Assembly (NCBI GenBank): GCA_036679645.1
Contig: JAZDCY010000015.1
Location: 1-64,000 of the forward strand
DNA: 64,000 nt
Reading direction: 5' to 3'
Origin: Gemmatimonadota bacterium
GTDB lineage: Bacteria; Gemmatimonadota; Gemmatimonadetes; Gemmatimonadales; GWC2-71-9
Made by a program: the position numbers and the translations under genes
In this document: in pieces, positions 45,797 through 64,000 of the stretch
Layout of the letters: each line of letters begins with the position of its first letter
Numbering within the stretch: position 1 is the first letter of the stretch
The notes under the pieces: model-generated
Database searches by the model: none
Told to the model about the DNA's origin: nothing
The model's input: only the letters and a program-made list of their open reading frames with translations

Positions 45797-45889
45797 GGAG
45801 ACACCTCAGGAAAACGATTGGGAGATGTGGCTAAGGTAGTGCGCCGCGGCTGTTCGGCAAAGGGGGATCACCAGTTATACTGCGCCCCT

Positions 45890-46600: not shown

Positions 46601-46670
46601 GTGCTCAGGTGCTCAGGTGCTCAGTGATTTTGACTGCGCACCCCTGAGCGTCTGAGCAACTGAGCGTCTT
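46598..46670. repeat. 8-nt periodic palindromic element
   Basis: taggtgctcaggtgctcaggtgctcag ... ctgagcgtctgagcaactgagcgtct, starting at the TauE stop. Confidence 0.75.
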
Positions 46671-46769: not shown

Positions 46770-46880
46770 AATGCGATTTGCGATGGACAATTGGCGATCG
46801 GCGATCTGCGATTTGCGTCAATTGCCGTTCGCCAATCGTAAATCGGCAATCGCCGATCGTTCTTGCAGGGGGGAGCTTGC
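46770..46880. repeat. Leader A: 7-nt periodic palindrome plus RBS, copy 1
   Basis: 46845-46915 matches 52460-52530 with one mismatch. Confidence 0.8.
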
Positions 46881-49529
46881 ATGAGCGAAATCACCGAGCG
46901 TCTTTCCTCAGCGATAGCTGACCGCTACAAGATCGAACGCCACCTCGGCCAGGGTGGCATGGCGACCGTCTATCTCGCACACGACGTAAAGCACGACCGC
47001 AAGGTCGCGCTCAAGGTGCTTCGCCCCGAACTCGCGGCCGTCATCGGTGCCGAGCGGTTCCTGCAAGAGATCAAGGTCACCGCGAACCTGCAGCACCCGA
47101 ACATCCTCGCGCTCTACGACTCCGGCGAAGCAGACACCTTCCTCTATTACGTGATGCCCTTCGTGGAAGGCGACACGCTGCGCGACAAGCTGGATCGAGA
47201 GAAACAACTCGGTATCGAAGACGCGATCGAGATTGCCCGGAGCGTAGCGGCCGCGCTCGACTACGCGCATCGCCACGAGGTCATTCACCGCGACATCAAG
47301 CCCGAGAACGTCTTGCTGCACGATGGGCAGGCCCTAGTAGCCGATTTCGGGATTGCACTCGCGGTGAGCCAGGCAGGCGGCAGCCGGTTGACCGAGACCG
47401 GTCTCTCACTCGGCACGCCGCACTACATGAGCCCAGAACAGGCAATGGGCGATCGCGAGATCGACGCGCGCAGCGACGTCTACTCGTTGGGCGCCATGCT
47501 GTACGAGATGCTCGCCGGTGAGCCGCCGTACACGGGCACGACGGCGCAGGCGATCGTGGCGCGGGTGATCACGGAAGACCCGCGTCCGGTCACGCTGCAA
47601 CGGCGGACGGTGCCGTCGCATGTGGCGGCGGCGGTGCACAAGGCACTCAACAAGCTGCCGGCCGACCGCTTCGCGACCGCGGCACAGTTCGCTGACGCGT
47701 TGACCAACCCGGCGTTCACGGTACCGACAACGACCGCGATGGCGGCAGGCACGGCTTCACGACCCTCGCTGGGTCGGTTTGCATGGCCCGCCGTCGCTGT
47801 GGTGGCGGTGGCCGTGGCGCTGTTCGGCTGGCTCCGCCCAATGCCCACTACCGAGCGCCTGCCTACCAGATTCGCGCTGGACCTGTCGGAGCAGGCGATG
47901 ATCGGGGCCTATGGCCTCATGTCGTCGGTCGCCATTGCCCCGGACGGTCGCACGGTGGTCTACGTGGGCCGCGGCGATCCGGAAACGCGACTGTATCGGC
48001 GGCGGTTGGATCGGTTGGACTGGGAGCCGATCGCGGGGACGGACAACGGCGACAGTCCGTTCTTCTCGCCGGATGGCCGGTGGGTCGGTTTTCGTCAGGG
48101 GAACCGTCTGCGAAAAGTGGATCTCCGCACCGGGTCGACCGTCACGCTCGCGACCCTGGACCGCTCGGCACTTATCACCGGCGCCGGGTGGAGTCCATCG
48201 GACACGATCTATCTGGCGCTCGAAGCCATTGGCGGATTGTTCAAGGTCCCGGCGGAGGGCGGGACGCTCGAGCGCGTCGCCATGGAGGACACTGTCAGCC
48301 TCCTCTATGGGCCCTCCCTGTTACCCGGCGGCGAATGGGTCCTCGGCTCGGTCTTGCCGCCCGATCGAGGCAGCTTGTTCATTCTGTCAGCGATATCGCT
48401 GCGCACCGGTGAAGTCCGACACCTCGTGGAGGGTCCGGGTTACGCGTATTACCTCGGCAACGGACGCCTGTTCTTCCTGCTCCAGGACGGCACGGCCGTG
48501 ACCGCGCCGCTGGATCCGCGCGACCCGCAGCCCACTACGGAGCGGGTTCCGACCGGCGAGACGATTGCGCGGAATCCCGGCGGCACCGCCAATCTCGCGG
48601 TGGCGCAGAATGGGACCGCCGTGTTCCTCGCCGGGGGCTCCGCAGAGAACACGGTCGTGTTCGTGGACCGGAGCGGACGCGAAACGCCCGTCCTCACAGC
48701 ACCGCGCGATTACAAGGATCCCCGCTTTTCGCCAGATGGGCGGCGCCTGGCGTATGAACTTCGCGACGGCGACGAAGGGGACATCTGGGTCTACGAGTTC
48801 GACCGGGCTACGGCCACGCGTCTCACGTTTGAGAGTGAGAACCTCTATCCGGTCTGGTCGCCCGATGGGTCGCGCCTGGCGTTTACGTCGCGACGCACCG
48901 GCATTGCGGGCTTGTGGTGGAGGGCGGCCGACGGCAGCGGCGCAGTGGAAGAGCTGCTCGCGGGCACGGAGTTGCGGTTCCCAGGCGCCATTACGCCGGA
49001 CGGAGAGACGTTGCTGTACCGGGAGACGGCGGCCGCTACGGGCCACGACATCTACTCTCTAGCGCTCGCGGGAGATCGCACACCTCGGCCCGTCATCGTT
49101 ACGCCCTTCGACGAGATTTCGCCCACGTTGTCGCCCAACGGGCGATGGATGGCGTACGTGTCGGACCGCTCGGGCCGCAACGAGGTCTACGCCCGAGCTT
49201 TCCCTGACGGAACCACCGACTACCAGATCTCCGCCGGGGGCGGAGCCGAACCCGTCTGGGACAACGACGGTGCGCGCCTCTATTATCGCCGCGGCCCCAC
49301 GCTGACGCAGGCAACGCTCCAGGTGACCGACGCCGTCCGTGTGCTCGAGCGGGACTCGCTGTTCTCCGGTGACTACCTGGAGAACGTGCGATGGCCGGAG
49401 TACGATATCCATCCCGACGGGAGCGGGTTCGTGTTCATCCGGCTGGGCGACGCCGGACTGCGGCCCGTCATCGTGCTCAACTGGCTCGAGGAACTCGAGC
49501 GGCGTGCCGAGGGGTGGGAGGGGAGTTGA
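46881..49529 (+). CDS. Ser/Thr protein kinase, TM helix and TolB/PD40 beta-propeller (K1)
   Basis: GQGGMATVY, VALK, HRDIKPEN, DFG and GTPHYMSPE. Hydrophobic segment, SPDG repeats and C-terminal VLNW. Confidence 0.93.
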   Translation: MSEITERLSSAIADRYKIERHLGQGGMATVYLAHDVKHDRKVALKVLRPELAAVIGAERFLQEIKVTANLQHPNILALYDSGEADTFLYYVMPFVEGDTLRDKLDREKQLGIEDAIEIARSVAAALDYAHRHEVIHRDIKPENVLLHDGQALVADFGIALAVSQAGGSRLTETGLSLGTPHYMSPEQAMGDREIDARSDVYSLGAMLYEMLAGEPPYTGTTAQAIVARVITEDPRPVTLQRRTVPSHVAAAVHKALNKLPADRFATAAQFADALTNPAFTVPTTTAMAAGTASRPSLGRFAWPAVAVVAVAVALFGWLRPMPTTERLPTRFALDLSEQAMIGAYGLMSSVAIAPDGRTVVYVGRGDPETRLYRRRLDRLDWEPIAGTDNGDSPFFSPDGRWVGFRQGNRLRKVDLRTGSTVTLATLDRSALITGAGWSPSDTIYLALEAIGGLFKVPAEGGTLERVAMEDTVSLLYGPSLLPGGEWVLGSVLPPDRGSLFILSAISLRTGEVRHLVEGPGYAYYLGNGRLFFLLQDGTAVTAPLDPRDPQPTTERVPTGETIARNPGGTANLAVAQNGTAVFLAGGSAENTVVFVDRSGRETPVLTAPRDYKDPRFSPDGRRLAYELRDGDEGDIWVYEFDRATATRLTFESENLYPVWSPDGSRLAFTSRRTGIAGLWWRAADGSGAVEELLAGTELRFPGAITPDGETLLYRETAAATGHDIYSLALAGDRTPRPVIVTPFDEISPTLSPNGRWMAYVSDRSGRNEVYARAFPDGTTDYQISAGGGAEPVWDNDGARLYYRRGPTLTQATLQVTDAVRVLERDSLFSGDYLENVRWPEYDIHPDGSGFVFIRLGDAGLRPVIVLNWLEELERRAEGWEGS

Positions 49530-49599
49530 AGGTGACTGACGTGAAACGCGCAACGTTCAGGGTACGAACCTCGGCGTGCAGCGTTACTGATTGCAGCCG

Positions 49600-49746
49600 G
49601 GTTCCCGCGCTGAAGCGCGGGCTCGGCGCTGCGCGGACCGTCCTGAAGGACGGTCGAGGTGCACGCCCTTCAGGGCGTGTCGCGGCCCTGTGGGCCGCGC
49701 CGAGCCGGGGCTTCAGCCCCGGAACACCGGGTACGGACGGAAGCTC
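49600..49746. repeat. Leader B: multi-hairpin REP/REPIN-like element, copy 1
   Basis: Five GC stems with TGAA/TTCA loops. 147 bp, with 4 differences from 55215-55361. Confidence 0.85.
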
Positions 49747-52386
49747 ATGAACGAGATAACGCAGCGCCTTACGACGGCGATCGCCGATCGCTACAAGATC
49801 GAATCCCACCTCGGCCAGGGCGGGATGGCGACCGTCTATCTCGCCGAGGACATCCGGCACAAGCGGAAGGTCGCGCTCAAGGTCCTGCGGCCCGAGCTGG
49901 CCGCGGTGATCGGCGCCGAGCGCTTCCTTCAGGAGATCACCGTCACTGCCAACCTGCAGCATCCCAACATCCTCGCGCTCTACGACTCCGGTGAGGCCGA
50001 TTCGTTCCTTTACTATGTGATGCCGTTCGTCGAAGGCGACACGCTGCGCGACAAGCTGGATCGGGAGAAACAACTCGGTATCGAAGAAGCGATCGAGATC
50101 GCCAGAAGCGTAGCCGCCGCGCTCGATTACGCACATCGCCACGAGGTTATTCATCGCGACATCAAGCCCGAGAACGTGTTGCTGCACGATGGGCAGGCAC
50201 TAGTAGCCGATTTTGGGATTGCGCTCGCGGTGAGCCAGGCAGGCGGCAGCCGGTTGACCGAGACCGGTCTCTCACTCGGCACGCCGCACTACATGAGCCC
50301 CGAACAGGCAATGGGCGATCGCGAGATCGACGCGCGCAGCGATGTCTATTCGCTCGGTGCGATGCTGTACGAGATGCTCGCCGGTGAGCCGCCGTACACG
50401 GGCACGACGGCGCAGGCGATCGTGGCGCGCGTGATCACGGAAGACCCGCGTCCGGTCACGCTGCAACGCCGGACGGTGCCGTCGCATGTTGCGGCGACGG
50501 TACACAAGGCACTCAATAAACTGCCGGCCGACCGGTTCCCTAGTGCGGCGAGCTTCGCCGAAGCGCTGGTGCGGCCGGGCATGGTGGATACGACCGAGTA
50601 CCAGGCGGCCGGCAAGACGCCCGCGGCTGCAGCTCGTCCGGTGCCGGGTGGCGTCGTGCGCCGCGGCGCGATGCCCGTCGCCCTGCTCGTGCTCGCCGGT
50701 CTCGCGGCGTGGGGCTGGTTCCGCGGTACGCCGCCGCCGGCCGTCGCGCGGTTCGACATCGGCGTGGCCGGCAGCCCCGGTCCAGCCACCGTCAGCAATG
50801 GGGCATCGCTGGCGATCGCCCCGGACGGCTCGCACTTCGTGTACGCCGCGAGCGACGGTGGACTGTATGTCCGGGACCTCGATCAGCTCCAGAGCCGCGC
50901 GCTGTCCGCGAATGGGTTCGCGCCGTTCTTCTCGCCGGACGGTGAATGGGTGGGGTATGCGGATGGGAACTCGCTCAAGAAAGTCGCGCCGGCCGGTGGG
51001 CCGCCGTTGGCGATCGCCTCCGTGAGCGGCGACCTGTTCCGCGGGGGGTCGTGGGGCGAGGACGGCACCATTGTCTTCGCGCCCGATGTCGGCTCCCCGC
51101 TCCTGCTGGTCCCCGATGGCGGCGGCCCGACAGACACGTTGACGCACCTGGACGTTGCGCACGGGGTGACCAGCCACCGCTGGCCGGCGTGGCTGCCGGG
51201 GCAGGATGGCCTCCTGTTTCAGGCCTGTCGTGGCTCGGCAGACGTCTGTGAGATCGCCGTGCTCGACCTGCGAACGGACAGCGTCCGCTACCTGGTGCCG
51301 GGGACGAGCCCCCACTACATCTCCACCGGCCATCTCCTGTACACGGCGCCGAGCGGTGCGCTGCTCGCGGCGCCATTCGACTTGGATCGCATGGAGTTGA
51401 CGGGCAATCCGGTCTCCCTGATGGAAGGAATCCTCATACGCGCGTCGTGGAACGGCGAGTTCGCCATCGCCCGCAACGGCACGCTGCTGTACGTGGGCGG
51501 TCAGACTGCCGGTGGAGACCTGACCCTCGTGGACAGTGCGGGGAGTGGGCGAGTGGTGCTCCCGGATCTGGCCGAGGGATCCGCCCCGCGGTTTTCACCC
51601 GACGGAGGTCGCATTGCGTTTACGGCGTCCCCGGAAGGCGCCAACGAAGTCTGGATCTTCGACCGGACGTTGGCGACCATGTCCCGACTCACGTTCGAAG
51701 GGAGCGCCTTGTATCCGACGTGGTCGGCGCAGGGCGACACCGTGTACTACTCAACCGATGCGGAGTCGCCGGACCGGGACATCTGGCGACGAGCCGCCGA
51801 CGGGAGTGGGGCGCCGGAGCGTGTGCTGGAGCGGCCAGGGCAGCAGTTCGAAATCGCGGTCCCTGCCACGGGTGGGGTTGCGCTGGTTCGCGAAATCGCG
51901 TCCACCGGGCCGGCCCTGTACGCCCTGCCATTGGCCCCGGCGGGTGAGCTCCGTCCCTGGGTCGTGAGCAGTTTCTCAGAACGCTCGGCGTCACTCTCGC
52001 CGGACGCGCGATGGGCGGCCTACACCTCCAACGAGTCGGGTCAGGACGAGATCTACGTGCGGGCCTTCCCCGAGGCGGAGGGGCGCTGGCAGGTGTCTTC
52101 CGGTGGCGGCACCGAACCCCTGTGGTCGAGTGACGGTCGGACGATCTACTACCGGCGGGCCGACACGCTGTTCGCGACCGCGGTGCAGACCCGACCCACT
52201 TTTACCGTGGGTCCGCGCCGCACGGTGTTCACCACCAGCTTCCAGCAGAATTCGTCTCACACCAACTACGATCGGGATCGCCGCACCGGCGAATTCGTGG
52301 TGATTGCGCAGACCGAGGGAAACGCCACTGCGCTCGTGGTGGTGCTCAACTGGTTCGAGGAGCTACGGGAACGGATGGGGCAATGA
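49747..52386 (+). CDS. Ser/Thr protein kinase, TM and beta-propeller (K2)
   Basis: Same intact kinase motifs, TM MPVALLVLAGLAAWGW, PD40 repeats and VLNWFEEL. Confidence 0.93.
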   Translation: MNEITQRLTTAIADRYKIESHLGQGGMATVYLAEDIRHKRKVALKVLRPELAAVIGAERFLQEITVTANLQHPNILALYDSGEADSFLYYVMPFVEGDTLRDKLDREKQLGIEEAIEIARSVAAALDYAHRHEVIHRDIKPENVLLHDGQALVADFGIALAVSQAGGSRLTETGLSLGTPHYMSPEQAMGDREIDARSDVYSLGAMLYEMLAGEPPYTGTTAQAIVARVITEDPRPVTLQRRTVPSHVAATVHKALNKLPADRFPSAASFAEALVRPGMVDTTEYQAAGKTPAAAARPVPGGVVRRGAMPVALLVLAGLAAWGWFRGTPPPAVARFDIGVAGSPGPATVSNGASLAIAPDGSHFVYAASDGGLYVRDLDQLQSRALSANGFAPFFSPDGEWVGYADGNSLKKVAPAGGPPLAIASVSGDLFRGGSWGEDGTIVFAPDVGSPLLLVPDGGGPTDTLTHLDVAHGVTSHRWPAWLPGQDGLLFQACRGSADVCEIAVLDLRTDSVRYLVPGTSPHYISTGHLLYTAPSGALLAAPFDLDRMELTGNPVSLMEGILIRASWNGEFAIARNGTLLYVGGQTAGGDLTLVDSAGSGRVVLPDLAEGSAPRFSPDGGRIAFTASPEGANEVWIFDRTLATMSRLTFEGSALYPTWSAQGDTVYYSTDAESPDRDIWRRAADGSGAPERVLERPGQQFEIAVPATGGVALVREIASTGPALYALPLAPAGELRPWVVSSFSERSASLSPDARWAAYTSNESGQDEIYVRAFPEAEGRWQVSSGGGTEPLWSSDGRTIYYRRADTLFATAVQTRPTFTVGPRRTVFTTSFQQNSSHTNYDRDRRTGEFVVIAQTEGNATALVVVLNWFEELRERMGQ

Positions 52387-52387
52387 G

Positions 52388-52495
52388 ACGATTTGCGATG
52401 GACGATTGGCGATCTGTGATTTGCGATTGCCGTCAATCGCCAATCGCCGATCGCAAGTTGGCAATCGCCGATCGTTCTTGCAGGCGGGAGCTTGC
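52388..52495. repeat. Leader A: 7-nt periodic palindrome plus RBS, copy 2
   Basis: gatttgcgatggacgattggcgatctgtgatttgcgattgc / caatcgccaatcgccgatcgc... Confidence 0.8.
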
Positions 52496-55177
52496 ATGAG
52501 CGAAATCACCGAGCGTCTTTCCTCAGCGATCGCCGATCGATACAAGATCGAGTCCCACCTCGGCCAGGGCGGGATGGCGACCGTCTATCTCGCCGAGGAC
52601 ATCCGCCACAAGCGGAAGGTCGCGCTCAAGGTGTTGCGACCGGAGCTGGCCGCCGTGATCGGTGCCGAGCGTTTCTTGAAAGAGATCACCGTCACTGCCA
52701 ACCTGCAGCACCCCAACATCCTCGCGCTCTACGATTCTGGCGAGGCCGACACCTTCCTCTTTTATGTGATGCCGTTCGTGGAAGGTGATACGCTGCGTGA
52801 TAAGCTCGACCGCGAGAAGCAATTGGCAATTGACGAAGCGGTGGATATCACGAAGGCAGTCGCGTCGGCGCTCGATTACGCGCACCGGCACGATGTCATT
52901 CATCGCGACATCAAGCCCGAGAACATTCTGCTCCACGACGGGCAGGCGCTCGTGGCGGATTTTGGGATTGCGCTCGCCGTGAGCGAAGCCGGCGGCAGCC
53001 GGTTGACCGAGACGGGTCTCTCCCTCGGCACGCCGCACTACATGAGTCCCGAGCAGGCGATGGGCGACCGCGAGATCGACGCGCGCAGCGACGTCTACTC
53101 GTTGGGCGCCATGCTGTACGAGATGCTGGCGGGTGAGCCGCCGTACACAGGGACGACGGCGCAGGCGATCGTGGCGCGCGTGATCACGGAAGATCCGCGC
53201 CTAGTGACGCTCCAACGCCCGACCGTGCCTGGCCACGTTGCGGCGACCGTGCACAAAGCGTTGAACAAGTTGCCGGCCGACCGCTTCGCGACCGCAGCCC
53301 AGTTCGCGGAGGCGTTGACCAATCCAGCGTTCACGGTGCCGGCGACCGCAGCGGTGCCGGTGGTGGGTGGTGGACGGTCCGGTGTGCGGCGATTCGTGTG
53401 GCCCGCCGTTGCCGCGATTGCCGTGGCCGCGGCACTGTTCGGCTGGCTCCGGCCAGGCGCCGAGCCACCTCCCGTCATGCGCCAGGGCATCGTGTTGGGC
53501 TCGGTCGGGGCGGCTCCGTTCAGTGTGCTCAGCGGCACCGCGATCGCCCCAGACGGCTCCGCCATCGTCTTCATCGATTCGTCCGGGAGCGGGCCACAGC
53601 TCTGGATCAAGGAGCGCGACCAGCGGGATCCGGCACCCATCCCCGGTGCGGTCGGCGTGACCGGGGGGATCACATTCTCGCCGGACGGTGAGTGGATTGC
53701 ATACTCCGCCGGCGTGCAGCTCAAGAAGATCCCCCGGAGCGGTGGTGCGCCGGTGACGCTCTCGGACTCGGCCGGTGGTCCACGGCCCGCGTGGCTCGAT
53801 GACGGCACGATCGTATTCGCGAGCACAGGCGGGGCGAGACTGTTCCGGGTGAGCAGTGATGGGGGAGGTGAGGAGCGCCTCCTGGCACTGCAGGACGTCG
53901 GGCGTGCGTTTGCCAACGTCACCCCGCTCCCCGGCCGGAGGGCCGTGCTCATCACGGCCGTCGCGCTATCGTTTGTCGCAAGCGATCTGATGGTGCTCGA
54001 CCTCGAGAGTCATGAACTCGAGACGCTGGTCGCCGGTGCGGGATGGGGTGCATACGCCCCGACGGGTCACCTCGTTTACGCGCTCCGCAACGGAGGCCTC
54101 TGGGCCGCCCCCTTCGATCTCGACGGATTCTCGGTCGGGGAGGCGGTCCCGCTCGAGGCGGGGGTGCGCACGATCTTGGGGTTGGCCGAGGCCACGCTGG
54201 GAGCGGACGGCACTCTGCTCTACGTGCGAGGGCAGGCGACCGTCACTCCTGGCCGGATCGTGTGGGTGGATCGGGACGGCGGCGCGAGCGAGGTCGATCC
54301 CGATTTCGCCTTTGCCGGAGTGCCCTTGAACGGTGGAATGCGCCTCTCGCCTGACGGAGGACGTCTGGCGCTGACCCTTCCGGGTGAAGGTGCCGCGGCC
54401 GTGACCGGTGACGTCTACGTCAAGCGGCTCCCGACCGGTCCGGCCGCCAGGGTCACGTTCGAGGGGGCGTCGAATCGGCGCCCGTCGTGGTCACCCGACG
54501 GAACACGGCTCACGATCATCTCGAATCGCGATGGCGCGGGGGACGACGTGTGGATGAAGCGTGCCGACGGCGGCGGCTCGGCGACGCTGCTGGTCGATCG
54601 CGAGCGACAGATCTTCGAGGCGGAATGGTCGCAAGACGGTCAGTGGCTGGTGTACCGCACCGACGACGATCAGGGGGGCGAAGGCCGCGGCGACATCCTC
54701 GCTGTCCGCACGGACGGCGACACCACACCGGTCCCGCTCGTGGCGACTCCTGCGGAAGAAACCGGACCGGCGGTTTCGTGGGATAGCCGGTGGCTGGCCT
54801 ACGCATCCGACGAGACCGGGCGCAAGGAGATCTACGTGCGGCCGTTTCCGAATACGGACGACGGCAAGTGGCTGGTCTCGACCAACGGGGGGAGCGAGGT
54901 GGCGTGGGCCCGGTCCGGGCGGGAGCTGTTCTACCGCGATGGCGTCGGTAACATGGTCGTGGCAACGGTCTCGGCGCAACAGAACTCGTTCGAGGTACTC
55001 GACCGCCGCATTCTCTTCGACGCGACCCCTTACCTCGGGCAAGACGACCACCGGTTATATGACGTTTCCGCAGACGGTGAGCGGTTCGTCATGATCAGCC
55101 TTGGCGCGGCGGCGGTGGCGGGAGACCTTATCATGGTGTCGAATTTTCATGAGGTGTTGAGGGGGATCGGCAGGTGA
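52496..55177 (+). CDS. Ser/Thr protein kinase, TM and beta-propeller (K3)
   Basis: Same intact kinase motifs, TM FVWPAVAAIAVAAALFGW and PD40 repeats. Confidence 0.93.
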   Translation: MSEITERLSSAIADRYKIESHLGQGGMATVYLAEDIRHKRKVALKVLRPELAAVIGAERFLKEITVTANLQHPNILALYDSGEADTFLFYVMPFVEGDTLRDKLDREKQLAIDEAVDITKAVASALDYAHRHDVIHRDIKPENILLHDGQALVADFGIALAVSEAGGSRLTETGLSLGTPHYMSPEQAMGDREIDARSDVYSLGAMLYEMLAGEPPYTGTTAQAIVARVITEDPRLVTLQRPTVPGHVAATVHKALNKLPADRFATAAQFAEALTNPAFTVPATAAVPVVGGGRSGVRRFVWPAVAAIAVAAALFGWLRPGAEPPPVMRQGIVLGSVGAAPFSVLSGTAIAPDGSAIVFIDSSGSGPQLWIKERDQRDPAPIPGAVGVTGGITFSPDGEWIAYSAGVQLKKIPRSGGAPVTLSDSAGGPRPAWLDDGTIVFASTGGARLFRVSSDGGGEERLLALQDVGRAFANVTPLPGRRAVLITAVALSFVASDLMVLDLESHELETLVAGAGWGAYAPTGHLVYALRNGGLWAAPFDLDGFSVGEAVPLEAGVRTILGLAEATLGADGTLLYVRGQATVTPGRIVWVDRDGGASEVDPDFAFAGVPLNGGMRLSPDGGRLALTLPGEGAAAVTGDVYVKRLPTGPAARVTFEGASNRRPSWSPDGTRLTIISNRDGAGDDVWMKRADGGGSATLLVDRERQIFEAEWSQDGQWLVYRTDDDQGGEGRGDILAVRTDGDTTPVPLVATPAEETGPAVSWDSRWLAYASDETGRKEIYVRPFPNTDDGKWLVSTNGGSEVAWARSGRELFYRDGVGNMVVATVSAQQNSFEVLDRRILFDATPYLGQDDHRLYDVSADGERFVMISLGAAAVAGDLIMVSNFHEVLRGIGR

Positions 55178-55214
55178 GTCGATTGGCGATGGACGGAGGG
55201 AAGGTGATCGCGGC

Positions 55215-55361
55215 GGTTCCCACGCTGAAGCGCGGACTCGGCGCTGCGCGGACCGTCCTGAAGGACGGTCGAGGTACACGCCCTTCAGGGCGTGTCGCGG
55301 CCCTGTGGGCCGCGCCGAGCCGGGGCTTCAGCCCCGGAATACCGGGTACGGACGGAAGCTC
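55215..55361. repeat. Leader B: multi-hairpin REP/REPIN-like element, copy 2
   Basis: Near-identical to 49600-49746. Confidence 0.85.
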
Positions 55362-58007
55362 ATGAACGAGATAACGCAGCGCCTTTCGTCGGCGATCGCC
55401 GATCGCTACAAGATCGAGCGCCACCTCGGCCAGGGTGGCATGGCCACGGTCTATCTCGCCCACGACGTCAAACACGACCGCAAGGTCGCGCTCAAGGTGT
55501 TGCGCCCAGAACTCGCGGCCGTGATCGGCGCCGAGCGATTCCTGCAGGAGATCAAGGTCACGGCGAATCTGCAGCACCCTAACATCCTTGCACTATACGA
55601 CTCCGGTGAAGCCGACACGTTTCTCTATTACGTGATGCCGTTCGTGGAAGGCGACACGCTGCGCGACAAGCTCGATCGTGAAAAGCAGCTCAGTGTCGAG
55701 GACTCGGTCGAACTCACGCGGAGCGTTGCCGCTGCACTCGATTACGCGCATCGCCAGCAGATCATCCACCGCGATATCAAGCCCGAAAACATCCTGCTGC
55801 ACGACGGCCAGGCGTTGGTGGCGGACTTTGGCATTGCGCTGGCGGTTAGCGCGGCAAGCGGGAACCGGCTCACGGAAACCGGGCTGAGCATTGGGACGCC
55901 ACACTACATGAGTCCCGAGCAAGCGATGGGCGACCGTGAGCTGGACGCGCGTAGCGATGTCTACTCTCTCGGGGCGATGATGTACGAGATGCTCGCGGGT
56001 GATCCGCCATACACCGGCAGCACCGCACAGGCGATCGTGGCAAAGGTGATTACGGAGAAGGCGCCGCCCGTCACTGCGGTGCGGGATACGGTGCCGGATC
56101 ATATAGCTGCGGCGATTCAGAAGGCGCTCAGCAAGTTGCCCGCGGATCGGTTTCACTCCGCCGCGGAGTTTGCCGAGGCGGTCGCAAAACCTGGCCTCTC
56201 GATCGCCACGACCGCGGCGGCCCCGCTCGCTGCGGTTCCTTCTCGCACGATTTCGTTCCGGCTTCCTCCCGCCGCAGTCGCGATTCCCTGGGTGCTATTT
56301 CTTGCCGCGCTGGGCTTCGGCGTGTGGAGCATTGTGCGTTCCGCCCCACCCCCGGCGATCGCCCGATTCAATGTTGGCTTGCCGCCGGATACGGGCCTGG
56401 CGACAACCAACGGCGGCACGCTCGCCATTTCTCCTGACGGGGGTGCCATTGTGTACGTGGGGCCAAGCCGTCGCCTCTACGTGCGCACGGTGTCGCAGTT
56501 CGGCGTGCGGCCCTTGCCGGGGACGGAGGGCGCGCATACGCCGTTCTTCTCCTACGATGGTGCGTGGGTCGGATTCTATGAGTCCCCGGATCTGAAGAAG
56601 GTTGCCCTGGCCGGAGGGCCGCCGCTCACCATCGCGAACGCCCCTACCCTCCGCGGCGCCAGCTGGGGCGATGACGGGCGCATCGTCTACTCTCCCAGTC
56701 TCTCGACGGGCTTGCTAGCGGTTGCGGCCGCGGGGGGGACAGTCGATACCGTGACCAGGCTCGATGCTGGCCGTGGCGAAGTGTCGCACCGGTGGCCGGA
56801 TGTCCTGCCTGGCAGCCGCGCGGCGCTCTTCACGGTGTGGTACGGCAGTCTCGAGGGGGCGGAGATCGCGGTCGCCGACCTGGAAACCGGTGAGGTCCGG
56901 CGGCTGTTCGGAGGAACCTACGCCCGGTACGTCCGTACCGGGCACATCGTGCACAGCACCGCAGAGGGAGCACTCCTGGCCATCCCATTCGATGTCGACC
57001 GGCTCGAGGTAACGGGGAACCCCGTGGCTCTGAGCGAAGGACTGGTTGTGAAGCCGGCGGGGGTGGGAGAGTTCGCCGTCTCATCTGGTGGGACCTTGGT
57101 GTACCTCGAGGGAGAGGCCGCGGAGTTGAGCCTGGTGAGTGTTGACCGGACTGGTGGACAGCACGTGTTGGCCGAGAAGCTCTTTGCGGCCTTCGCTCCG
57201 CGTACGTCACCGGACGGGCGCCGAGTCGCTTTGCGCATATCCGCCGACGGCAATCAGGACATCTGGGTCCATGAACTGGAGCAGGCCACGATGTCGCGCC
57301 TGACGTTCGAGGGGAACAACGATTATCCTGCGTGGTCGCCGGATGGCGAGTACATCTACTTCGGCAGCGCGCGCGGTGATTCGAGCGCCCGGGATATCTA
57401 CCGGCGGCGTGCCGACGGCAGCGGCGCGGCCGAGCACTTCGTTTCGCGTCCCGGGGCGCAATGGGAAATCGAGATCGCCCCGAACGGTCATGTGGGGATA
57501 CTGCGGGAGGTCAGTGAGGTGACCGGGCGTGACCTCATGGTAGTGCAGATGGATGGTGCGGACGTCACCCCCTATCTCGTCACCAACTTCCAGGAGCGGG
57601 CGGCCGCCATCTCGCCCGACGGCCGCTGGCTGGCGTACGTGTCCGATGAATCGGGGCAAGACGAAGTGTATGTGCGCGCGTTTCCGGAGCCGTCGGGTCG
57701 TTGGCAGATCTCGGCGGACGGTGGGGCGGAACCGCTCTGGGCGACCGCTGGCGGATCGATCTTCTATCGACACGACGACGAACTCGTCGAGGCACAGGTG
57801 CGGAGCGACGAAAACTCCTTTGCCGTCGGGACCCGACAGACGCTGTTTGCTGGGCCATTCACGACCAACGGGAACCGCACCAACTATGATCTCAACCGAC
57901 GCACGGGCGAATTCGTGATGATCAGGTCGGCCGAACGCTCGTCGACTGAACTCGTCGTGGTACTCAATTGGTTCGAGGAGCTGCGTGCCATGGTGGGCGG
58001 TGGCTGA
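55362..58007 (+). CDS. Ser/Thr protein kinase, TM and beta-propeller (K4)
   Basis: Same intact kinase motifs, TM IPWVLFLAALGFGVW, PD40 repeats and VLNWFEEL. Confidence 0.93.
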   Translation: MNEITQRLSSAIADRYKIERHLGQGGMATVYLAHDVKHDRKVALKVLRPELAAVIGAERFLQEIKVTANLQHPNILALYDSGEADTFLYYVMPFVEGDTLRDKLDREKQLSVEDSVELTRSVAAALDYAHRQQIIHRDIKPENILLHDGQALVADFGIALAVSAASGNRLTETGLSIGTPHYMSPEQAMGDRELDARSDVYSLGAMMYEMLAGDPPYTGSTAQAIVAKVITEKAPPVTAVRDTVPDHIAAAIQKALSKLPADRFHSAAEFAEAVAKPGLSIATTAAAPLAAVPSRTISFRLPPAAVAIPWVLFLAALGFGVWSIVRSAPPPAIARFNVGLPPDTGLATTNGGTLAISPDGGAIVYVGPSRRLYVRTVSQFGVRPLPGTEGAHTPFFSYDGAWVGFYESPDLKKVALAGGPPLTIANAPTLRGASWGDDGRIVYSPSLSTGLLAVAAAGGTVDTVTRLDAGRGEVSHRWPDVLPGSRAALFTVWYGSLEGAEIAVADLETGEVRRLFGGTYARYVRTGHIVHSTAEGALLAIPFDVDRLEVTGNPVALSEGLVVKPAGVGEFAVSSGGTLVYLEGEAAELSLVSVDRTGGQHVLAEKLFAAFAPRTSPDGRRVALRISADGNQDIWVHELEQATMSRLTFEGNNDYPAWSPDGEYIYFGSARGDSSARDIYRRRADGSGAAEHFVSRPGAQWEIEIAPNGHVGILREVSEVTGRDLMVVQMDGADVTPYLVTNFQERAAAISPDGRWLAYVSDESGQDEVYVRAFPEPSGRWQISADGGAEPLWATAGGSIFYRHDDELVEAQVRSDENSFAVGTRQTLFAGPFTTNGNRTNYDLNRRTGEFVMIRSAERSSTELVVVLNWFEELRAMVGGG

Positions 58008-60700
58008 TGAGCGAGATCACTGAACGCCTATCTACCGCGATCGCCGATCGATACAAGATCGAACGTCACTTGGGTCAAGGCGGCATGGCGACCGTCTATC
58101 TTGCCCACGACGTAAAACACGACCGGCAGGTCGCGCTCAAGGTGCTGCGGCCGGAACTGGCCGCCGTCATCGGCGCCGAGCGTTTCCTGCAGGAGATCAA
58201 GACCACTGCCAACCTGCAGCATCCGCACATACTCGGCCTGCACGATTCGGGCGAAGCCGACGGGCTCGTGTTCTACGTCATGCCGTATGTGGAAGGCGAG
58301 ACGCTGCGTGACCGCATGGACCGCGAGCGGCAACTTCCCGTTGGCGAGGCGGTGCGCATTGCACGCGAAGTGGCGGACGCGCTCGAGTACGCGCACGGCC
58401 GTGGTGTGATCCATCGCGACATCAAACCCGAGAACATCCTGTTGCACGGCGGACATGCTCAGGTGGTGGATTTCGGCATCGCGCTGGCGGTGAGTCGCAG
58501 TGAAGGTGGGACACGTCTCACCGAGACGGGCATGTCACTAGGGACGCCGCACTACATGAGTCCCGAGCAGGCGATGGGCGAGCGCGAGATCACGGCAAAG
58601 AGTGACGTCTACGCTCTTGGATGCGTGCTCTACGAAATGCTCACGGGAGAACCGCCCTTCGCGGGTCCCACGGCCCAAGCAATCATCGCGCGGGTGCTCA
58701 CCGAACAGCCGCGCTCGCTCACGGTGCAGCGGAGCACGATCCCGCCGCACGTGGACGCGGCCGTGAGTACGGCACTCGCCAAGCTGCCGGCGGATCGGTT
58801 CGCGAGTGCGGCGCAATTCGCGGAGGCCCTGGGGGATCCCACGTTCGCCACGGCGGCAGCGGCAGCGACCGCGGCGCGCGCCGAAGCAGCGGAGCCGACG
58901 GACCGCCGACGCAGTCGCCGGTCTGTGCTCACGCTCGGGCTTGCCGCAGTCGCGCTTGCGAGCACGTCCCTCGCCGGGTGGGGTTGGCTGAGCGTACGCA
59001 GCGCGTCGCGCCGGCCTACGACGTGGCAGTACACCTCGCTGAGCAACTCGGTCGATCTCATCACGTCGACGCCGTCCCTGGCACTGTCCCCGGATGGCAC
59101 GCTGCTGTTCCGGGAAGACGGCCAGGAGGGGCGGTTGTGGATCAAGCGGCGTGGCGAGCTGGATGCAACACCCGTTCCCGGAACCGAACGCTCTCAGAAC
59201 CCGGTGTTCTCTCCAGACGGTGAGTGGATCGCGTTCGTCGCCGACGGCCGCCTGAAGAAGATCCGGACCAGCGGCGGGGCAAGCGTCACGATCGCCGACT
59301 CGGTGACCGGCGGATTCGGTGGGGCGGCGTGGCTGGACGACGGCTCGTTGGTGTACGTGGGGAACACCTTGCAGAAGTTGTGGCGTGTGAGCGCTGCCGG
59401 TGGCTCGAGTCGGGTGGTCCTGCGTGACGCGTCACTTATCGGTGGTGGGATTGGGATGCCGGTTCCTCTGCCCGACGCGCGGGGCGTGCTGTTTCAGTAT
59501 TGCTCGTCCGGCTGTGTCACCATGAGCATCCACGTATTGGATTTGCGCACGGAAACACAAAAGACGCTGCTCGATGACGTCGCGCAGGCGTGGGTGCTTC
59601 CAAACGGGCGCCTCATGTACGTCCGGCGCGATGGCGTAGCCGTGGCCGCGCCGTTCGATCTCGAAACCCTCGAGATTACGGGAGAAGCCGTGCCGGTGCT
59701 CGAGGACATCGAGGTTCGGGCCTTCAACGGGTTTGCCTTACTCGCGTGGTCCGAATCGGGTTCGTTGATCTACGTGCAGGGATCCGGTAGCACGACGGCC
59801 AACGTGGCCATCCGCGTGGACCGCGATGGGGAAGTCACCGCCATCGACACCGCATGGTCCGGCGCCTTCAACTCGCTCGACCTCTCGCCGGACGGCCGCC
59901 AGTTGGCGGTGGGCGTAGGCGCCGGCGCGGGGATCAATATCTGGGTAAAACAACTCGATGACGGCCCGTTCACACGACTTACGTTCGGCAACCAGGACCG
60001 ACGGCCCGCGTGGTCACCCGACGGACGTCTCGTGGCCTTCGTGCGCGACGATGGCAGCACCAACGCAATCTTTGCCCGCCCCGTAGACGGCAGCGGTCCC
60101 GACCGGGAGATCGCCCGCATCGATCGACAGGTGCAGGAGGCCGCGTGGTCTCCTGACGGCGAGTGGATCGTTCTGCGCACGGATAACGGGACGGAAGGTG
60201 CGGGGGACCTCGTGGGCGTACGCCTGACCGGTGACTCGGTAGGAGTCCCGTTGGTCGCGAGCCCATTCAGTGAGCTGCACCCAACCATCTCGCCCGATGG
60301 GCGTTGGCTGGCCTACACGTCGAACGAATCCGGTCGGAGCGAGGTGTACGTGCGACCCTTTCCCAACACGAACGACGTACGCTGGCAGATCTCGAACGGG
60401 GGAGGTACACAACCGGTGTGGGCACAGAACGGTCGCGAGCTGTTCTATATCGATCCCGCCGGGATGGTGGTTGCTGCCCGTGTTGAGGTGACGTCCACGT
60501 TTACCATCGCCGGTCTCACGACGTTGTTCGACGCGTCGGAGTTCGCATTGGATGCCTTCCATCAATCATATGACGTCACTCCGGACGGGAGCGCCTTCGT
60601 GTTCCTCAGTCCACGGCGGTTGGCGGTCGGAGGGCAAGCATTGCGGATCGTCTGGGTGGATCACTGGTTCACGGATCTCGAAGAGCGTCTCGCGCAGTGA
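58007..60700 (+). CDS. Ser/Thr protein kinase, TM and beta-propeller (K5)
   Basis: TGATG coupling to K4. Intact kinase motifs, TM and PD40 repeats. Confidence 0.93.
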   Translation: MSEITERLSTAIADRYKIERHLGQGGMATVYLAHDVKHDRQVALKVLRPELAAVIGAERFLQEIKTTANLQHPHILGLHDSGEADGLVFYVMPYVEGETLRDRMDRERQLPVGEAVRIAREVADALEYAHGRGVIHRDIKPENILLHGGHAQVVDFGIALAVSRSEGGTRLTETGMSLGTPHYMSPEQAMGEREITAKSDVYALGCVLYEMLTGEPPFAGPTAQAIIARVLTEQPRSLTVQRSTIPPHVDAAVSTALAKLPADRFASAAQFAEALGDPTFATAAAAATAARAEAAEPTDRRRSRRSVLTLGLAAVALASTSLAGWGWLSVRSASRRPTTWQYTSLSNSVDLITSTPSLALSPDGTLLFREDGQEGRLWIKRRGELDATPVPGTERSQNPVFSPDGEWIAFVADGRLKKIRTSGGASVTIADSVTGGFGGAAWLDDGSLVYVGNTLQKLWRVSAAGGSSRVVLRDASLIGGGIGMPVPLPDARGVLFQYCSSGCVTMSIHVLDLRTETQKTLLDDVAQAWVLPNGRLMYVRRDGVAVAAPFDLETLEITGEAVPVLEDIEVRAFNGFALLAWSESGSLIYVQGSGSTTANVAIRVDRDGEVTAIDTAWSGAFNSLDLSPDGRQLAVGVGAGAGINIWVKQLDDGPFTRLTFGNQDRRPAWSPDGRLVAFVRDDGSTNAIFARPVDGSGPDREIARIDRQVQEAAWSPDGEWIVLRTDNGTEGAGDLVGVRLTGDSVGVPLVASPFSELHPTISPDGRWLAYTSNESGRSEVYVRPFPNTNDVRWQISNGGGTQPVWAQNGRELFYIDPAGMVVAARVEVTSTFTIAGLTTLFDASEFALDAFHQSYDVTPDGSAFVFLSPRRLAVGGQALRIVWVDHWFTDLEERLAQ

Positions 60701-60752
60701 TCGGGCGACACCGAGCCGAGATCGGGGGAGGAACCGCGACGATGGCTTGTTC

Positions 60753-60782
60753 TGACACCATGATGGCATTATCATGATGTCA
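60753..60782 (+). promoter_or_regulatory. vapBC autoregulatory operator / leaderless promoter
   Basis: TGACACCATGAT-N6-ATCATGATGTCA inverted repeat with 1 mismatch. TTGTTC-N17-TATCAT ends 6 nt before the ATG. Confidence 0.7.
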
Positions 60783-61033
60783 TGGTTAGAACTCAGATTC
60801 AGCTGACCGAGAGCCAGCACCGAGCCCTGAAGCATTGGGCCAACCGCCTGGGCATCTCGCTCGCCGAGGCCGTGCGGCGTTGCGTGGCGGAGCGGCTGGA
60901 GCGCGACGATACCTCCCTTGGCCGGGCCGCTCGGGTGCGCGAGGCGGAGGTCGTCATTGGGAAGTACGCTTCCGGCCGTTCGGACGTGGCCACGCATCAC
61001 GACGACTACCTGGCCGACGCGTTCTCCAGTTGA
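60782..61033 (+). CDS. vapB: RHH/CopG-type antitoxin
   Basis: MVRTQIQLT....GISLAEAVRR and SG.SDVA..HDDYL; overlaps the PIN gene. Confidence 0.85.
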   Translation: MVRTQIQLTESQHRALKHWANRLGISLAEAVRRCVAERLERDDTSLGRAARVREAEVVIGKYASGRSDVATHHDDYLADAFSS

Positions 61034-61431
61034 GCGTCTTCGTCGATACGTCGGCGCTGTATGCGTTGCTGGACCGGGACGATGCTGGCCACGGTCGTAT
61101 GGCAGAGGCCTGGGCCAAGTTGCTCTCGGGCCCCCGCCCGCTCATCACCAGCAATTACATACTGCTGGAGACCGCCGCGCTACTCCAGCGTCGGCTAGGC
61201 CTCGGCGCCGTGCATGATCTGGACGACTACCTGATGCCGCTGCTCCGGGTTTGGTGGATCACGGAGTCGACGCATCGTCGCGCCATGCGGCGCCTGCGGC
61301 GCCTGGACCGGCGCGGTGTGAGCCTCGTGGATTGCAGCAGCTTCGAGGTGATGGAAGCTGAGGCGATCCGGGACGCGCTCGCCCTCGACGAAGACTTCGC
61401 GGCGGAGGGATTCCGTCTGCTGCCAGCGTAG
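61030..61431 (+). CDS. vapC: PIN-domain toxin
   Basis: VFVDTSALYA, YILLET, SLVDC.SF and LDEDF. The TTG start overlaps the vapB stop. Confidence 0.88.
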   Translation: MSVFVDTSALYALLDRDDAGHGRMAEAWAKLLSGPRPLITSNYILLETAALLQRRLGLGAVHDLDDYLMPLLRVWWITESTHRRAMRRLRRLDRRGVSLVDCSSFEVMEAEAIRDALALDEDFAAEGFRLLPA

Positions 61432-61482
61432 GCGGGGAAGCTCGCGCGAACCCCACATCACTTCGCTGAATGGATTCGTGAT

Positions 61483-61629
61483 ATGAGCGGAATAACGGAA
61501 CGCCTCGAGCACGGCCGCAAGGTCGCCCTCAAAGTCTTACGCCCAGAATCGGCCGCAGTCTTGGGCGCCGAGCGCGTGCAAAGGAGAGCTGTGGATCTGC
61601 TGCTCGAGGACCGCGGGGAAGGACGATGA
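61483..61629 (+). pseudogene. Chimeric remnant: kinase N-terminus fused to an antitoxin C-terminus
   Basis: Translates MSGITERL|EHGRKVALKVLRPESAAVLGAERVQ|RRAVDLLLEDRGEGR*. ATGA overlap with the next PIN ORF. Confidence 0.7.
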
Positions 61630-61829
61630 AGTTCTGGGACACTTCGGCGATCCTGCCCCTCTTGGTGGACGAACCGCAGACGAAGGCCATGGTCGGGCTC
61701 ATGGGGGACGATCCCGCGGCGGCCGTGGTGTTGGCGGACTTTGAACCCCGAACGTTGCCCCTCGTTACACTGGATGACCGGCTGGCCGCCGCCGCGCGGC
61801 GAGAAGGCTTCGAGGTGCTCGGCACATGA
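61626..61829 (+). pseudogene. Internally deleted PIN-domain (VapC) toxin
   Basis: Keeps the N-terminus MKFWDTSAILPLL and the C-terminus VTLDDRLAAAARREGF but is only 67 aa, about half a VapC. Confidence 0.78.
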
Positions 61830-64000
61830 GCGAAATCAGCGAGAAACTGCAGGTTGCGATCGCCGACCGCTACACCATCGAGCGCGAACTCGGCGCCGGT
61901 GGCATGGCGACGGTCTATCTCGCGGAAGATCTGAAACACAAACGCAAGGTCGCACTCAAGGTCCTGCGGCCCGAACTTGCCGCCGTGCTCGGCGCTGAGC
62001 GGTTCGTGCAGGAGATCACCACCACTGCGGCGCTGCAGCACCCGCACATCCTCCCGCTGTACGACAGCGGGAAGGCGGGAGGGCGGGAAGGCGGGACGGA
62101 GTTTCTCTACTATGTGATGCCGTATGTCGAGGGGGAGACGCTGCGTGACAAACTCGACCGTGAGACGCAGCTCGGCATCGACGAAGCGGTGAAGATCACG
62201 GCCGAGGTGGCCGACGCGCTGTACTACGCGCACCAGCAGGGAGTGATCCACCGGGACATCAAGCCGGAGAACATCTTGCTGCACAATGGTCGACCGATGC
62301 TGGCCGATTTCGGCATCGCGCTGAGTGCCGGGGCGGATCGCAACCGGTTAACCGGGATCGGACTCGTGATCGGCACACCTGCCTACATGAGTCCGGAGCA
62401 GGTGGCCGCCGACCGAAACGTCGATGCGCACACCGATCAGTACGCGCTCGCGTGTGTGGTGTACGAGATGCTCGCCGGCGACCCGCCGTTTGTCGCTTCC
62501 AGTGATCAGGCAGTCATGGCCCGCCACGTGACGGATGCGGCACCGCCAATCGACACGGTGCGACCAGAGGTGAACGCTGCGGTGGTCCGTGCGCTTACGA
62601 AAGCCCTCGCCAAGGCGCCGATTGACCGCCATGAATCAGTGAGTGCATTCTGTGCGGCGCTGACGTCCGACACGTCTCCCGTAGATAGCGGCCCGATGTC
62701 CATCGCGGTATTGCCCTTCGTCAACATGAGCCCCGATCCGGACCAGGAGTACTTCGCCGATGGCATGGCGGAAGAACTGATCAGCGCGCTGACCAAGGTC
62801 CCGGGCCTCCGCGTCATCGCCCGTATGTCGGCCTTCGTATTCAAGGGAACGAACCAGGACATTGTGACGATCGGCGCACGACTCAGGGTCGCCATGATCG
62901 TGGAGGGCAGTGTTCGAAGACTGGGGGGACGTCTCCGTGTGACAGTGCAGTTGATCGAGGTATCGGGTGGCCACCAGGTATGGTCCGAGCGATACGATCG
63001 TGCGCTCGACGATCTCTTTGAGGTTCAAGACGATATTGCCCGTCGCATCGTGACGAGCATCACGCCGAAACTCATCGACCAAGGGAGTGAAGCGCTGATC
63101 GTCCGTCCGACCAATAGCCAGGACGCGTACGATCTGTATCTGCGTGCCGGTGAGCATCTCGCGCGCCTGAGTTCCGCAGAGACGCGCAAAGCGGTCACGA
63201 TGCTCGACAGCGCCACCGCTCTCGATCCCCACTTCGCAGGGGCGTGGGCTCGTTTGTCCGGCGCTTGTTGCTTGATGGACGGTTGGTTCGATCACGGAGT
63301 CCATTGGCACGACAAGACGGATCAGGCACTAACTCGGGCCCTCGAATTGGATCCTGACAACGCGGAGGCTCGTATGGTGCAGGGTCGCGTCCTGTGGACG
63401 CCACGTCACGGATTCCGCCACAGAGAGGCGTTGCGCGCCTTGGAGGAATCGCTTCGGTCGCAACCGGGCTCTGCTGCCGCGCGACTATGGCATAGTCTGA
63501 TCCTCTTGCATGTTGGCCTCATGACAAATGCGGAGGAGGGCCTCGAGGAATTGCTGGCGACCGAGCCGAACGATGCGACGGTGTTACAGTTCATCGCGCA
63601 ATGCATGCTATTCCAGTTCCGCTTCGACGCCGCGCAGGAATATCAGGCGCGGGCCCTGGCTGCGGATCCAGGGCATCATTTCGCGCAGATCTTTCAGCCG
63701 ACGGTGCTCCTGTATCAGAACGATCTTGCGGGAGCCGAGTCCGCCCTCGGGGTCGCGCGGCAGTTGCTGAAAGACGATCCGTTGCTTGACGGAAACGAGG
63801 CACTTCTGTGGGCGAAGCGGGGCGAGAGGGATCATGCCGAGGCGGCAATCGCGCGTGCGACGGACGACCGACCCTCCGTAAGTCACAGCCACCATGCGTG
63901 GCACTATGCAGCGGCGGCGTACGCCGTACTACACGAGCACAGCAAGGCGATCGCCCTGCTTCGGGACTCGGCCGACGCTGGGCTTCCAAATTATCCTTTA
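61826..64000 (+). CDS. Ser/Thr protein kinase, TolB_N-like (SIAVLPF) domain and TPR repeats (K6, 3' partial)
   Basis: Hand translation from ATG 61826 gives GAGGMATVY, HRDIKPEN, DFG, GTPAYMSPE and SIAVLPFVNMSPDPDQEYFADG, then helical TPR-like repeats. Open to the window end. Confidence 0.9.
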   Translation, partial: MSEISEKLQVAIADRYTIERELGAGGMATVYLAEDLKHKRKVALKVLRPELAAVLGAERFVQEITTTAALQHPHILPLYDSGKAGGREGGTEFLYYVMPYVEGETLRDKLDRETQLGIDEAVKITAEVADALYYAHQQGVIHRDIKPENILLHNGRPMLADFGIALSAGADRNRLTGIGLVIGTPAYMSPEQVAADRNVDAHTDQYALACVVYEMLAGDPPFVASSDQAVMARHVTDAAPPIDTVRPEVNAAVVRALTKALAKAPIDRHESVSAFCAALTSDTSPVDSGPMSIAVLPFVNMSPDPDQEYFADGMAEELISALTKVPGLRVIARMSAFVFKGTNQDIVTIGARLRVAMIVEGSVRRLGGRLRVTVQLIEVSGGHQVWSERYDRALDDLFEVQDDIARRIVTSITPKLIDQGSEALIVRPTNSQDAYDLYLRAGEHLARLSSAETRKAVTMLDSATALDPHFAGAWARLSGACCLMDGWFDHGVHWHDKTDQALTRALELDPDNAEARMVQGRVLWTPRHGFRHREALRALEESLRSQPGSAAARLWHSLILLHVGLMTNAEEGLEELLATEPNDATVLQFIAQCMLFQFRFDAAQEYQARALAADPGHHFAQIFQPTVLLYQNDLAGAESALGVARQLLKDDPLLDGNEALLWAKRGERDHAEAAIARATDDRPSVSHSHHAWHYAAAAYAVLHEHSKAIALLRDSADAGLPNYPL

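Follow-up and report, generated by a model that had tools for sequence, protein, structure and literature searches.

Layout of the array

The 64,000-nucleotide (nt) stretch analysed here (the window, C8:1-64000) lies on contig C8 of a 4.05-Mb Gemmatimonadota draft genome in 100 contigs (G000), and its right-hand part carries a row of receptor-kinase genes interspersed with vapBC toxin-antitoxin (TA) modules. Named homologs bear the label Gemmatimonadales, the likely order of the host. Thirteen co-oriented kinase genes and six vapBC modules, one of them dead, span 40 kb. The array extends past the window to K13 at C8:85943, and the last vapBC ends at C8:86815. The row comprises twelve kinase-propeller genes (K8 is frameshifted) together with K6, which is built differently, and five of the vapBC pairs look intact.

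The first five genes, all on the forward strand like every array feature in the window, are K1 (46881..49529), K2 (49747..52386), K3 (52496..55177), K4 (55362..58007) and K5 (58007..60700), with the stop of K4 overlapping the start of K5. Their products of 879-897 residues combine a Pkinase domain with PD40 repeats and have a hydrophobic segment near residue 300, and here the layout agrees with the first-pass annotation, which had listed five co-oriented genes of this kind. In K1, the Hanks kinase covers approximately residues 1-280, the predicted transmembrane (TM) segment 300-320 and a double six-bladed PD40/TolB-like propeller 330-882. All six Hanks motifs (Gly loop, VAxK lysine, HRDxKPxN, DFG, activation-loop end and subdomain IX) are found in K1-K14, and the Pkinase matches score 160-177 bits. 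The propeller genes of this set also encode the hydrophobic segment, and the TM segments were predicted by hydropathy.

Downstream of K5 lies an intact TA pair (60782-61431), predicted to be a vapBC: a vapB-type ribbon-helix-helix (RHH) antitoxin gene (60782..61033; RHH_1 21.6 bits, cut-off 20.5), with an inverted repeat upstream as its likely operator, overlaps by 4 nt a vapC-type PIN toxin gene (61030..61431; 44 bits, above the Pfam cut-off). It is followed by a remnant (61459..61629) in which the end of a type C leader and an internally deleted, K12-like kinase start (from 61483) are fused in frame to the C-terminal tail of an antitoxin. The dead vapC comes next (61626..61829); within 61591-61829 only the antitoxin tail is left, together with a PIN gene that has lost 222 nt internally when compared with the intact copy at C8:82.4-83.2 kb, whose vapC lies at 82.7-83.2 kb, and this pair gave no Pfam hit. 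Its stop overlaps the start of K6 (61826..64000 in the window, ending at C8:64114), which encodes a kinase, a TolB_N/CadC-like segment and TPR repeats and has no TM segment. Thus, of the kinase remnant, two vapBC modules and sixth kinase with a TPR output described previously, the remnant, K6 with its TPR and one intact vapBC stand, while the second vapBC is a deleted remnant and the order after K5 is TA, remnant, dead TA, K6.

G000 encodes 33 intact kinase-propeller genes, many fragments and 112 reading frames with a kinase match. Rows of similar size occur in G058, G018, G165, G239 and G032, and the ectodomain is present in 46 of the 61 related genomes searched, placing receptor Ser/Thr kinases among the largest signalling families of the lineage. 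A second cluster on the same contig (C8:106489-122503) holds K14-K17, a partial kinase, a PIN gene at 109822 and doublets of repetitive extragenic palindromic (REP) elements, termed REPINs; contig C8 ends inside a kinase block.

Mosaic kinases and conserved sensor types

The kinases of K1-K5 share 72-93% protein identity, and their four-fold degenerate sites differ at 0.29-0.57, where saturation would be 0.65. They had been described as nearly identical even at synonymous sites. This description is accurate for one K1/K2 tract (47341-47625 against 50207-50490), in which 273 of 285 positions are identical and the 94 codons carry 11 silent and no replacement differences, but it fails as a general statement: the same tract is 66-88% identical in the other nine K1-K5 pairs, and the first 95 codons of K1 and K2 match at only 229/285 positions. 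Near-identity of the kinases across the genome is ruled out, leaving only patches such as that of K1/K2, and the longest identical tracts between different genes measure 77 nt (K1/K2) and 86 nt (K12/K13).

Similarity among K1-K4 switches along the genes. At the start and in the leaders K1 resembles K3 and K2 resembles K4, in the N-lobe the pairs are K1 with K4 and K2 with K3, and in the C-lobe they are K1 with K2 and K3 with K4; K2 is accordingly a mosaic of a K4-like start, a K3-like N-lobe and a K1-like C-lobe. All three quartet topologies appear in blocks, and a runs test on the 68 informative sites finds 25 runs, a number as low as which was reached in 0/20000 shuffles (p<5e-5); on silent sites only, 39 sites form 18 runs (p=0.002). 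Three other quartets are all significant on all sites. The kinase dN/dS ranges from 0.03 to 0.21. Neighbours in the array have kinases more alike than in shuffled orders (p=0.0015), which is not the case for their propellers (p=0.11).

Mosaics could also be created by an assembler that collapses or misjoins near-identical kinase blocks, a concern already raised with the first-pass annotation. The draft is in 100 contigs, and the contigs of read set X1, possibly the source of the assembly, break only in kinase blocks and inside every one of them, none spanning the stretch. Against this, unique segments in X1 are covered at an even depth of 95-111x with exact matches, and X1 contigs join kinase C-lobe, propeller and next leader. 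In X2, a read set from another study, pieces 90-95% alike cross some of the joints, connecting the kinases of K2 and K4 with the respective propellers and the end of K2 with the start of K3; the K3 propeller has low cover in X2. Identical tracts do not exceed 86 nt, and the same kinase/propeller pattern recurs in other genomes. We thus find no sign of collapse, which is unlikely, and there is very little chance that an artefact of assembly accounts for the mosaics.

The propellers have a different character. They had been read as hypervariable ectodomains sharing little beyond SPDG-type motifs, but those of K1-K5 align end to end at 32-49% identity and form one colinear family. The AlphaFold model of K1 (pLDDT 93.5, pTM 0.89) has twelve blades in two six-bladed propellers, with a TolB-like propeller (255-528, Z 28.8-30.8) inserted into the first, which itself aligns to the sensor of PknD (Z 21.5); Foldseek returned generic double-propeller matches only (TM-score ≤0.35). 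Across 11 pairs of orthologs, alleles or recent paralogs the whole-domain dN/dS is 0.08-0.36, values that are rough because many pairs are near saturation. The propeller of K1 is 71-72% identical to those of P0001 and a G044 gene, that of K2 68% to that of a G039 gene, that of K7 73-75% to those of G002 and G039 genes, and that of K5 55-74% to those of genes in five genomes. The full-length K5 ortholog in G001 is 75% identical over 898 residues, in the range of the neighbouring housekeeping orthologs (53-89%). By these identities, each propeller type is more closely related to genes of other genomes than to those at home.

With top and bottom faces assigned from strand order rather than from coordinates, the top-face loops are variable across the family (0.40-0.46 vs 0.66-0.69). 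Within a type, they are about as invariant as the structural turns (30/64 and 29/59 vs 34/62 and 31/57 for the K5 type). Type-specific residues are enriched on the top face in 11 of 16 tests, a contrast to which the family-wide conservation of the bottom turns itself contributes in part; in the K1 and K14 types propeller 1, and in three pairs propeller 2, did not reach significance. This pattern seems to favour stable specificities over an arms race. Colinear alignment, purifying selection, conservation of types across genera and predicted top faces that are largely fixed within types lead us to reject hypervariability. In P0040 the same double propeller is fused to a BTAD (PF03704) domain in place of the kinase, which means that outputs other than a kinase can be coupled to the sensor.

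Separate trees of the two domains (73 rows, being 76 minus three G018 near-duplicates; quick trees under different models) are incongruent. The genome label changes 19 times along the kinase tree and 26 times along the propeller tree, against 37 when shuffled. The kinases of K1-K3 form one clade (99), while their propellers fall in three separate clades, and approximately unbiased (AU) tests on a 20-row subset reject all four cross-domain clades (p≤1.6e-4). Best hits among 85 genes from 11 genomes, with complete sampling only for G000, point the same way: the best match lies in the own genome for 47/85 kinases vs 20/85 propellers and, without G000, for 21/52 vs 2/52. Among cross-genome pairs with propellers at least 55% alike, both kinases are closer to a home paralog in 20/35. 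K1 illustrates this reversal, its kinase being 93% identical to that of K2 but its propeller 34%, and its propeller 71% identical to that of P0001 but its kinase 74%. Together with the mosaic quartets, this incongruence bears out the earlier suggestion that the conserved cassette acts as a recombination handle.

These data also bear on a simpler history in which an old family evolves by birth and death, through tandem duplication, a constrained kinase, a drifting ectodomain and occasional gene conversion, with TA and REP elements tolerated by redundancy. Such a history would account for a genome with 33 intact copies and numerous fragments, most kinase pairs are near silent-site saturation, and lineage-specific expansion by duplication and/or recombination is described for Planctomycetota and myxobacteria in the portion of PMC11032199 used here. 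Yet the reversed ranking of kinase and propeller similarity and the AU tests need an exchange of long kinase tracts.

The locus also differs between congeners. On its left flank, a gene for an exported PPC-domain protein (44726-45796, reverse strand) precedes that for a TauE permease (45818-46600, forward strand), and the order pntB-PPC-tauE is kept in G001. In G001, orthologs of C8:98-106 kb come after tauE, and about 10 kb further on stands the K5 ortholog in the company of three other kinases; in G002, tauE is followed by different genes, and then a PIN gene lies directly 5' of a kinase at the contig end. Order and content of the locus are therefore not conserved. Past the array, C8:86815-96666 contains a cytochrome c/PQQ-dehydrogenase-like gene, a PIN gene (89741) and a lipoprotein gene paired with a TonB-receptor-like gene, all named from their translations rather than by a family scan.

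The kinase 5' end and the toxin-antitoxin pairs

The spacers upstream of the kinases are of three types. Type A, built of 7-nt tandem repeats in an inverted arrangement (a hairpin), precedes K1 (46771..46869) and K3 (52388..52484); six of its 30 dispersed copies are at kinase starts and 24/30 elsewhere. Type B precedes K2 (49598..49724) and K4 (55210..55339) and is a REPIN-like inverted REP doublet related to the repeats that flank a Y1_Tnp gene, encoding a REP-associated tyrosine transposase (RAYT), on C50; 12/19 copies are at kinase starts, or 8/15 without the seeds, where random placement gives a mean of 0.2. Type C, which has its match in the sequences on either side of a four-helix-bundle gene (C7:93267), lies away from kinases in 16/19 copies. 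At C7:93267-96737, on the reverse strand, that gene and its type C repeats are closely packed with genes for a kinase-propeller protein and a PIN protein. Directly after tauE (46600-46670) the window has a further hairpin of short tandem and inverted repeats, with 9-nt and 7-nt units, that resembles the A and C leaders. A scan of 44-64 kb, leaders included, for Rfam structured RNAs gave no hit at gathering score, and scans for sigma-70 promoters and terminators gave 3 and 10 sites, little more than the 2.3 and 8.5 in shuffles.

A second RAYT gene, on C53, lies directly 5' of a kinase; a third, at C92:24600-25600, has a different REP family in tandem downstream. On C8, C4, C9 and C75, REP elements and vapBC come after kinase-start stubs that break off within or close to the Gly loop, and the succession of stub, REP and full kinase was seen in nine of the ten foreign loci inspected. 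In G165 (L042:8001-8700), an autonomous RAYT gene with REP arms on both sides sits between a kinase stub and a full kinase. A tighter stub-REP pattern matched in 0/251 genomes of the phylum, but its gap limit was shorter than the spacing already seen, so this negative carries no weight. The stubs are 69-89% alike to the kinase start that follows, which is the level of paralogs; a perfect target-site duplication as their origin is not supported, and displacement of the resident kinase start by that of an incoming paralog would fit. These arrangements suggest that the kinase 5' end is likely an insertion slot, marked by a stub, then a REP/RAYT element or a vapBC, and then a fresh kinase start.

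For the birth-and-death history, the position of type A and C leaders, mostly elsewhere, and the existence of large arrays with no PIN match are again favourable. It does not readily explain why stubs break off within a narrow zone and a fresh kinase start comes next in several genera, or why type B REPINs so exceed random expectation at kinase starts, and with the kinase exchange it would also have to accommodate, we consider it unlikely.

Of the 27 PIN genes in G000, ten are no more than 2 kb away from a strong family kinase, of which there are 68, against a mean of 2.2 and a maximum of 9 in 5000 random draws. Enrichment of TA toxins next to such arrays, for which a test had been proposed, therefore exists in this genome; in relatives it is weak, and in some large arrays undetected. 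The TA pairs of the array belong to unrelated subtypes (RHH-PIN and Phd-PIN), and the stops of two vapC genes overlap kinase starts, those of K6 and K9. In G018, an RHH-PIN of the same type as the last pair of the array occupies the same slot in one of three array copies. These three copies of a 20-kb kinase array (C2, C16 and C6; L014-L019) are 86-97% alike, may be strain haplotypes or segmental duplications, and differ at the slot between two kinases, which holds a short hairpin, a vapBC with REP, or an apparent phosphatase fragment. This variation and the absence of a PIN match in large arrays thus make the toxins optional passengers, and the vapBC pairs are likely selfish ones; a stabilising role against deletion of the array is plausible by analogy.

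A surveillance or immune function, previously suggested on account of the embedded toxins, would have the propellers sense proteins of phages, predators or competitors and the kinases trigger an abortive response through VapC. Tandem, recombining receptor clusters are known from plant receptor-like kinase loci, as the excerpt of PMC3136440 used here describes, PIN genes are enriched in G000, two vapC stops overlap kinase starts, and the kinase domain scores against the PD-T4-6 and MADS6 profiles. The matches to defence profiles are, however, limited to the kinase domain, and those to NCBIfam fall far below cut-off (MADS6 188 of 460 bits, PglW 94 of 990), so that PD-T4-6, MADS6 and BREX PglW are rejected as identities of these kinases. 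The propellers are under purifying selection, with types conserved across genera and top faces largely fixed, and the TA pairs are of unrelated subtypes, vary between copies and go undetected in other arrays. Toxins are enriched here yet not required; an immune role is unsupported and quite improbable, and the locus offers no evidence of a new immune system.

A probable reshuffled sensor library and its counterparts

We consider it probable that the locus is a tandem set of predicted single-pass receptor Ser/Thr kinases in which mosaic kinase halves have been exchanged between copies and joined to old, conserved types of double-propeller sensor. The exchange would likely proceed by homologous recombination. 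Each propeller type likely binds its own ligand outside the inner membrane, and binding at the top face may, as for PknD of mycobacteria, make the receptors dimerise and autophosphorylate. Homogenised kinases would let many sensors act on the same one or two substrate sets, and because each ectodomain is flanked by kinase DNA, crossovers would delete or duplicate it or import another behind the host's own kinase. Cargo arriving with a leader and a kinase start probably anchors by homology and leaves the old start behind as a stub of 20-90 nt; REP/RAYT elements, four-helix-bundle shells and vapBC are the cargo seen at the slot. A vapBC, once inserted, would penalise loop-out deletion of the array.

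Several observations weigh against this reading or parts of it. Much of the kinase similarity is plain purifying selection, and the silent-site mosaic test is not significant for two of the four quartets (p=0.48 and 0.56) and weak for a third (p=0.04). The groups for the AU tests were chosen after the trees had been seen; in 15/35 of the cross-genome pairs a home paralog is not the closer match for one kinase or both; and the K5 kinase stayed closest to its G001 ortholog (87%), so kinase exchange is not universal. Since X1 has no contig that crosses an entire kinase block, independent proof of the gene order is lacking, and the hydropathy scores of the K2 and K5 TM segments are modest (1.7). 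A search for the stub pattern gave 14 matches in 8/301 genomes, while the reversed control gave 12 in 10, and the case for the slot therefore rests on the inspection of loci; no convincing stub was found 5' of the type B leaders of K2 and K4. The ten kinase-adjacent PIN genes fall in only six loci, K1-K5 (14 kb) carry no TA, and in six relatives 6/51 PINs are adjacent where about two are expected; the single PIN of G058 is on another contig than its array. No PIN match was obtained in a further four relatives, among them G165, G206 and G239, which are 75-81% complete and have large arrays.

A more far-reaching version, which we put forward only tentatively and think rather doubtful as a whole, makes the locus an integrase-free cassette system with conserved kinase DNA as its recombination site, a dock at the 5' end and vapBC modules that lock the array against collapse in the manner of TA cassettes in superintegrons. 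A phylum-wide pool of double-propeller sensors, each specific for a ligand, would be traded between genera and always wired to the kinase and substrates of the host, the first 90 nt of the kinase would be the dock at which RAYT/REPIN deliver leaders and vapBC, and some vapBC may put the next kinase under a stress-responsive TA promoter.

The best reading of the locus, a large and well-preserved example of its kind, remains a stable sensor library that is reshuffled through kinase homology and carries selfish cargo. The locus illustrates the way in which numerous old sensor specificities can be maintained by a bacterium on a shared output module that is locally homogenised, and the use that small selfish elements make of the 5' end of that module. 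The type-specific top-face residues are direct targets for mutagenesis and ligand screening, with positions 282-283, 325, 369-370 and 507-510 of the K1 ectodomain as candidates.

That receptor kinases of bacteria can expand and cluster in tandem is known from earlier work. The closest single protein is PknD of Mycobacterium tuberculosis (sensor PDB 1rwi), which shares the N-terminal kinase, single TM segment and C-terminal six-bladed propeller and, in the part of the source consulted, is activated allosterically by dimerisation (PMC1847690). The PknD sensor is one six-bladed propeller, whereas the array proteins have two interlocked PD40/TolB-type propellers, the second TolB-like, and form dozens of paralogs per genome, in tandem and with exchanged kinases. 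The membrane Ser/Thr kinases of Planctomycetota and myxobacteria resemble them in lineage-specific expansion, in joining a cytoplasmic kinase to periplasmic repeats (WD40/TPR), and in species-specific kinase clades and tandem neighbours; trans-genus sensor types and a 5' cargo slot, as in the array, were not met in that account, whose main text, in the form available, lacks the words gene conversion, Gemmatimonad, Acidobacteri and toxin (PMC11032199). Our literature search found no paper on this receptor-kinase family in Gemmatimonadota and nothing on point for gene conversion in bacterial receptor-kinase arrays or concerted evolution of sensor domains. Streptomyces coelicolor SCO4775-4779 (pkaH, SCO4776, pkaD, pkaI, pkaJ) are likewise five consecutive Ser/Thr kinase genes, but they are separately transcribed and act in spore-wall synthesis, and the available portion of the report mentions no propeller or TA (PMC4416010).

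The Arabidopsis OAK cluster is likewise a tandem of receptor kinases with recombination or gene conversion, and its cytoplasmic domains are interchangeable while its ectodomains diverge; according to the excerpt used, OAK ectodomain codons are positively selected among alleles of one species, while the array types are conserved across genera (PMC3136440). In sedentary chromosomal integrons, as the consulted part of PMC13108822 describes them, TA cassettes kill cells when excision is too frequent, and they share with the array TA pairs interspersed in a recombining row, which in the array are preceded by operator-like repeats. Integron units are bounded by attC and array units by kinase homology; no search for intI or attC was made here. 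The cargo slot, the most original part of the locus, shares with RAYT/REPIN elements the inverted REP doublets that also flank Y1_Tnp genes. Those elements are purely extragenic in the part of the source seen (PMC3116915), whereas the REPs of the array lie within the 5' ends of kinases, and the copies of the gene start on their two sides, 18-97 nt long, are only 69-89% alike.

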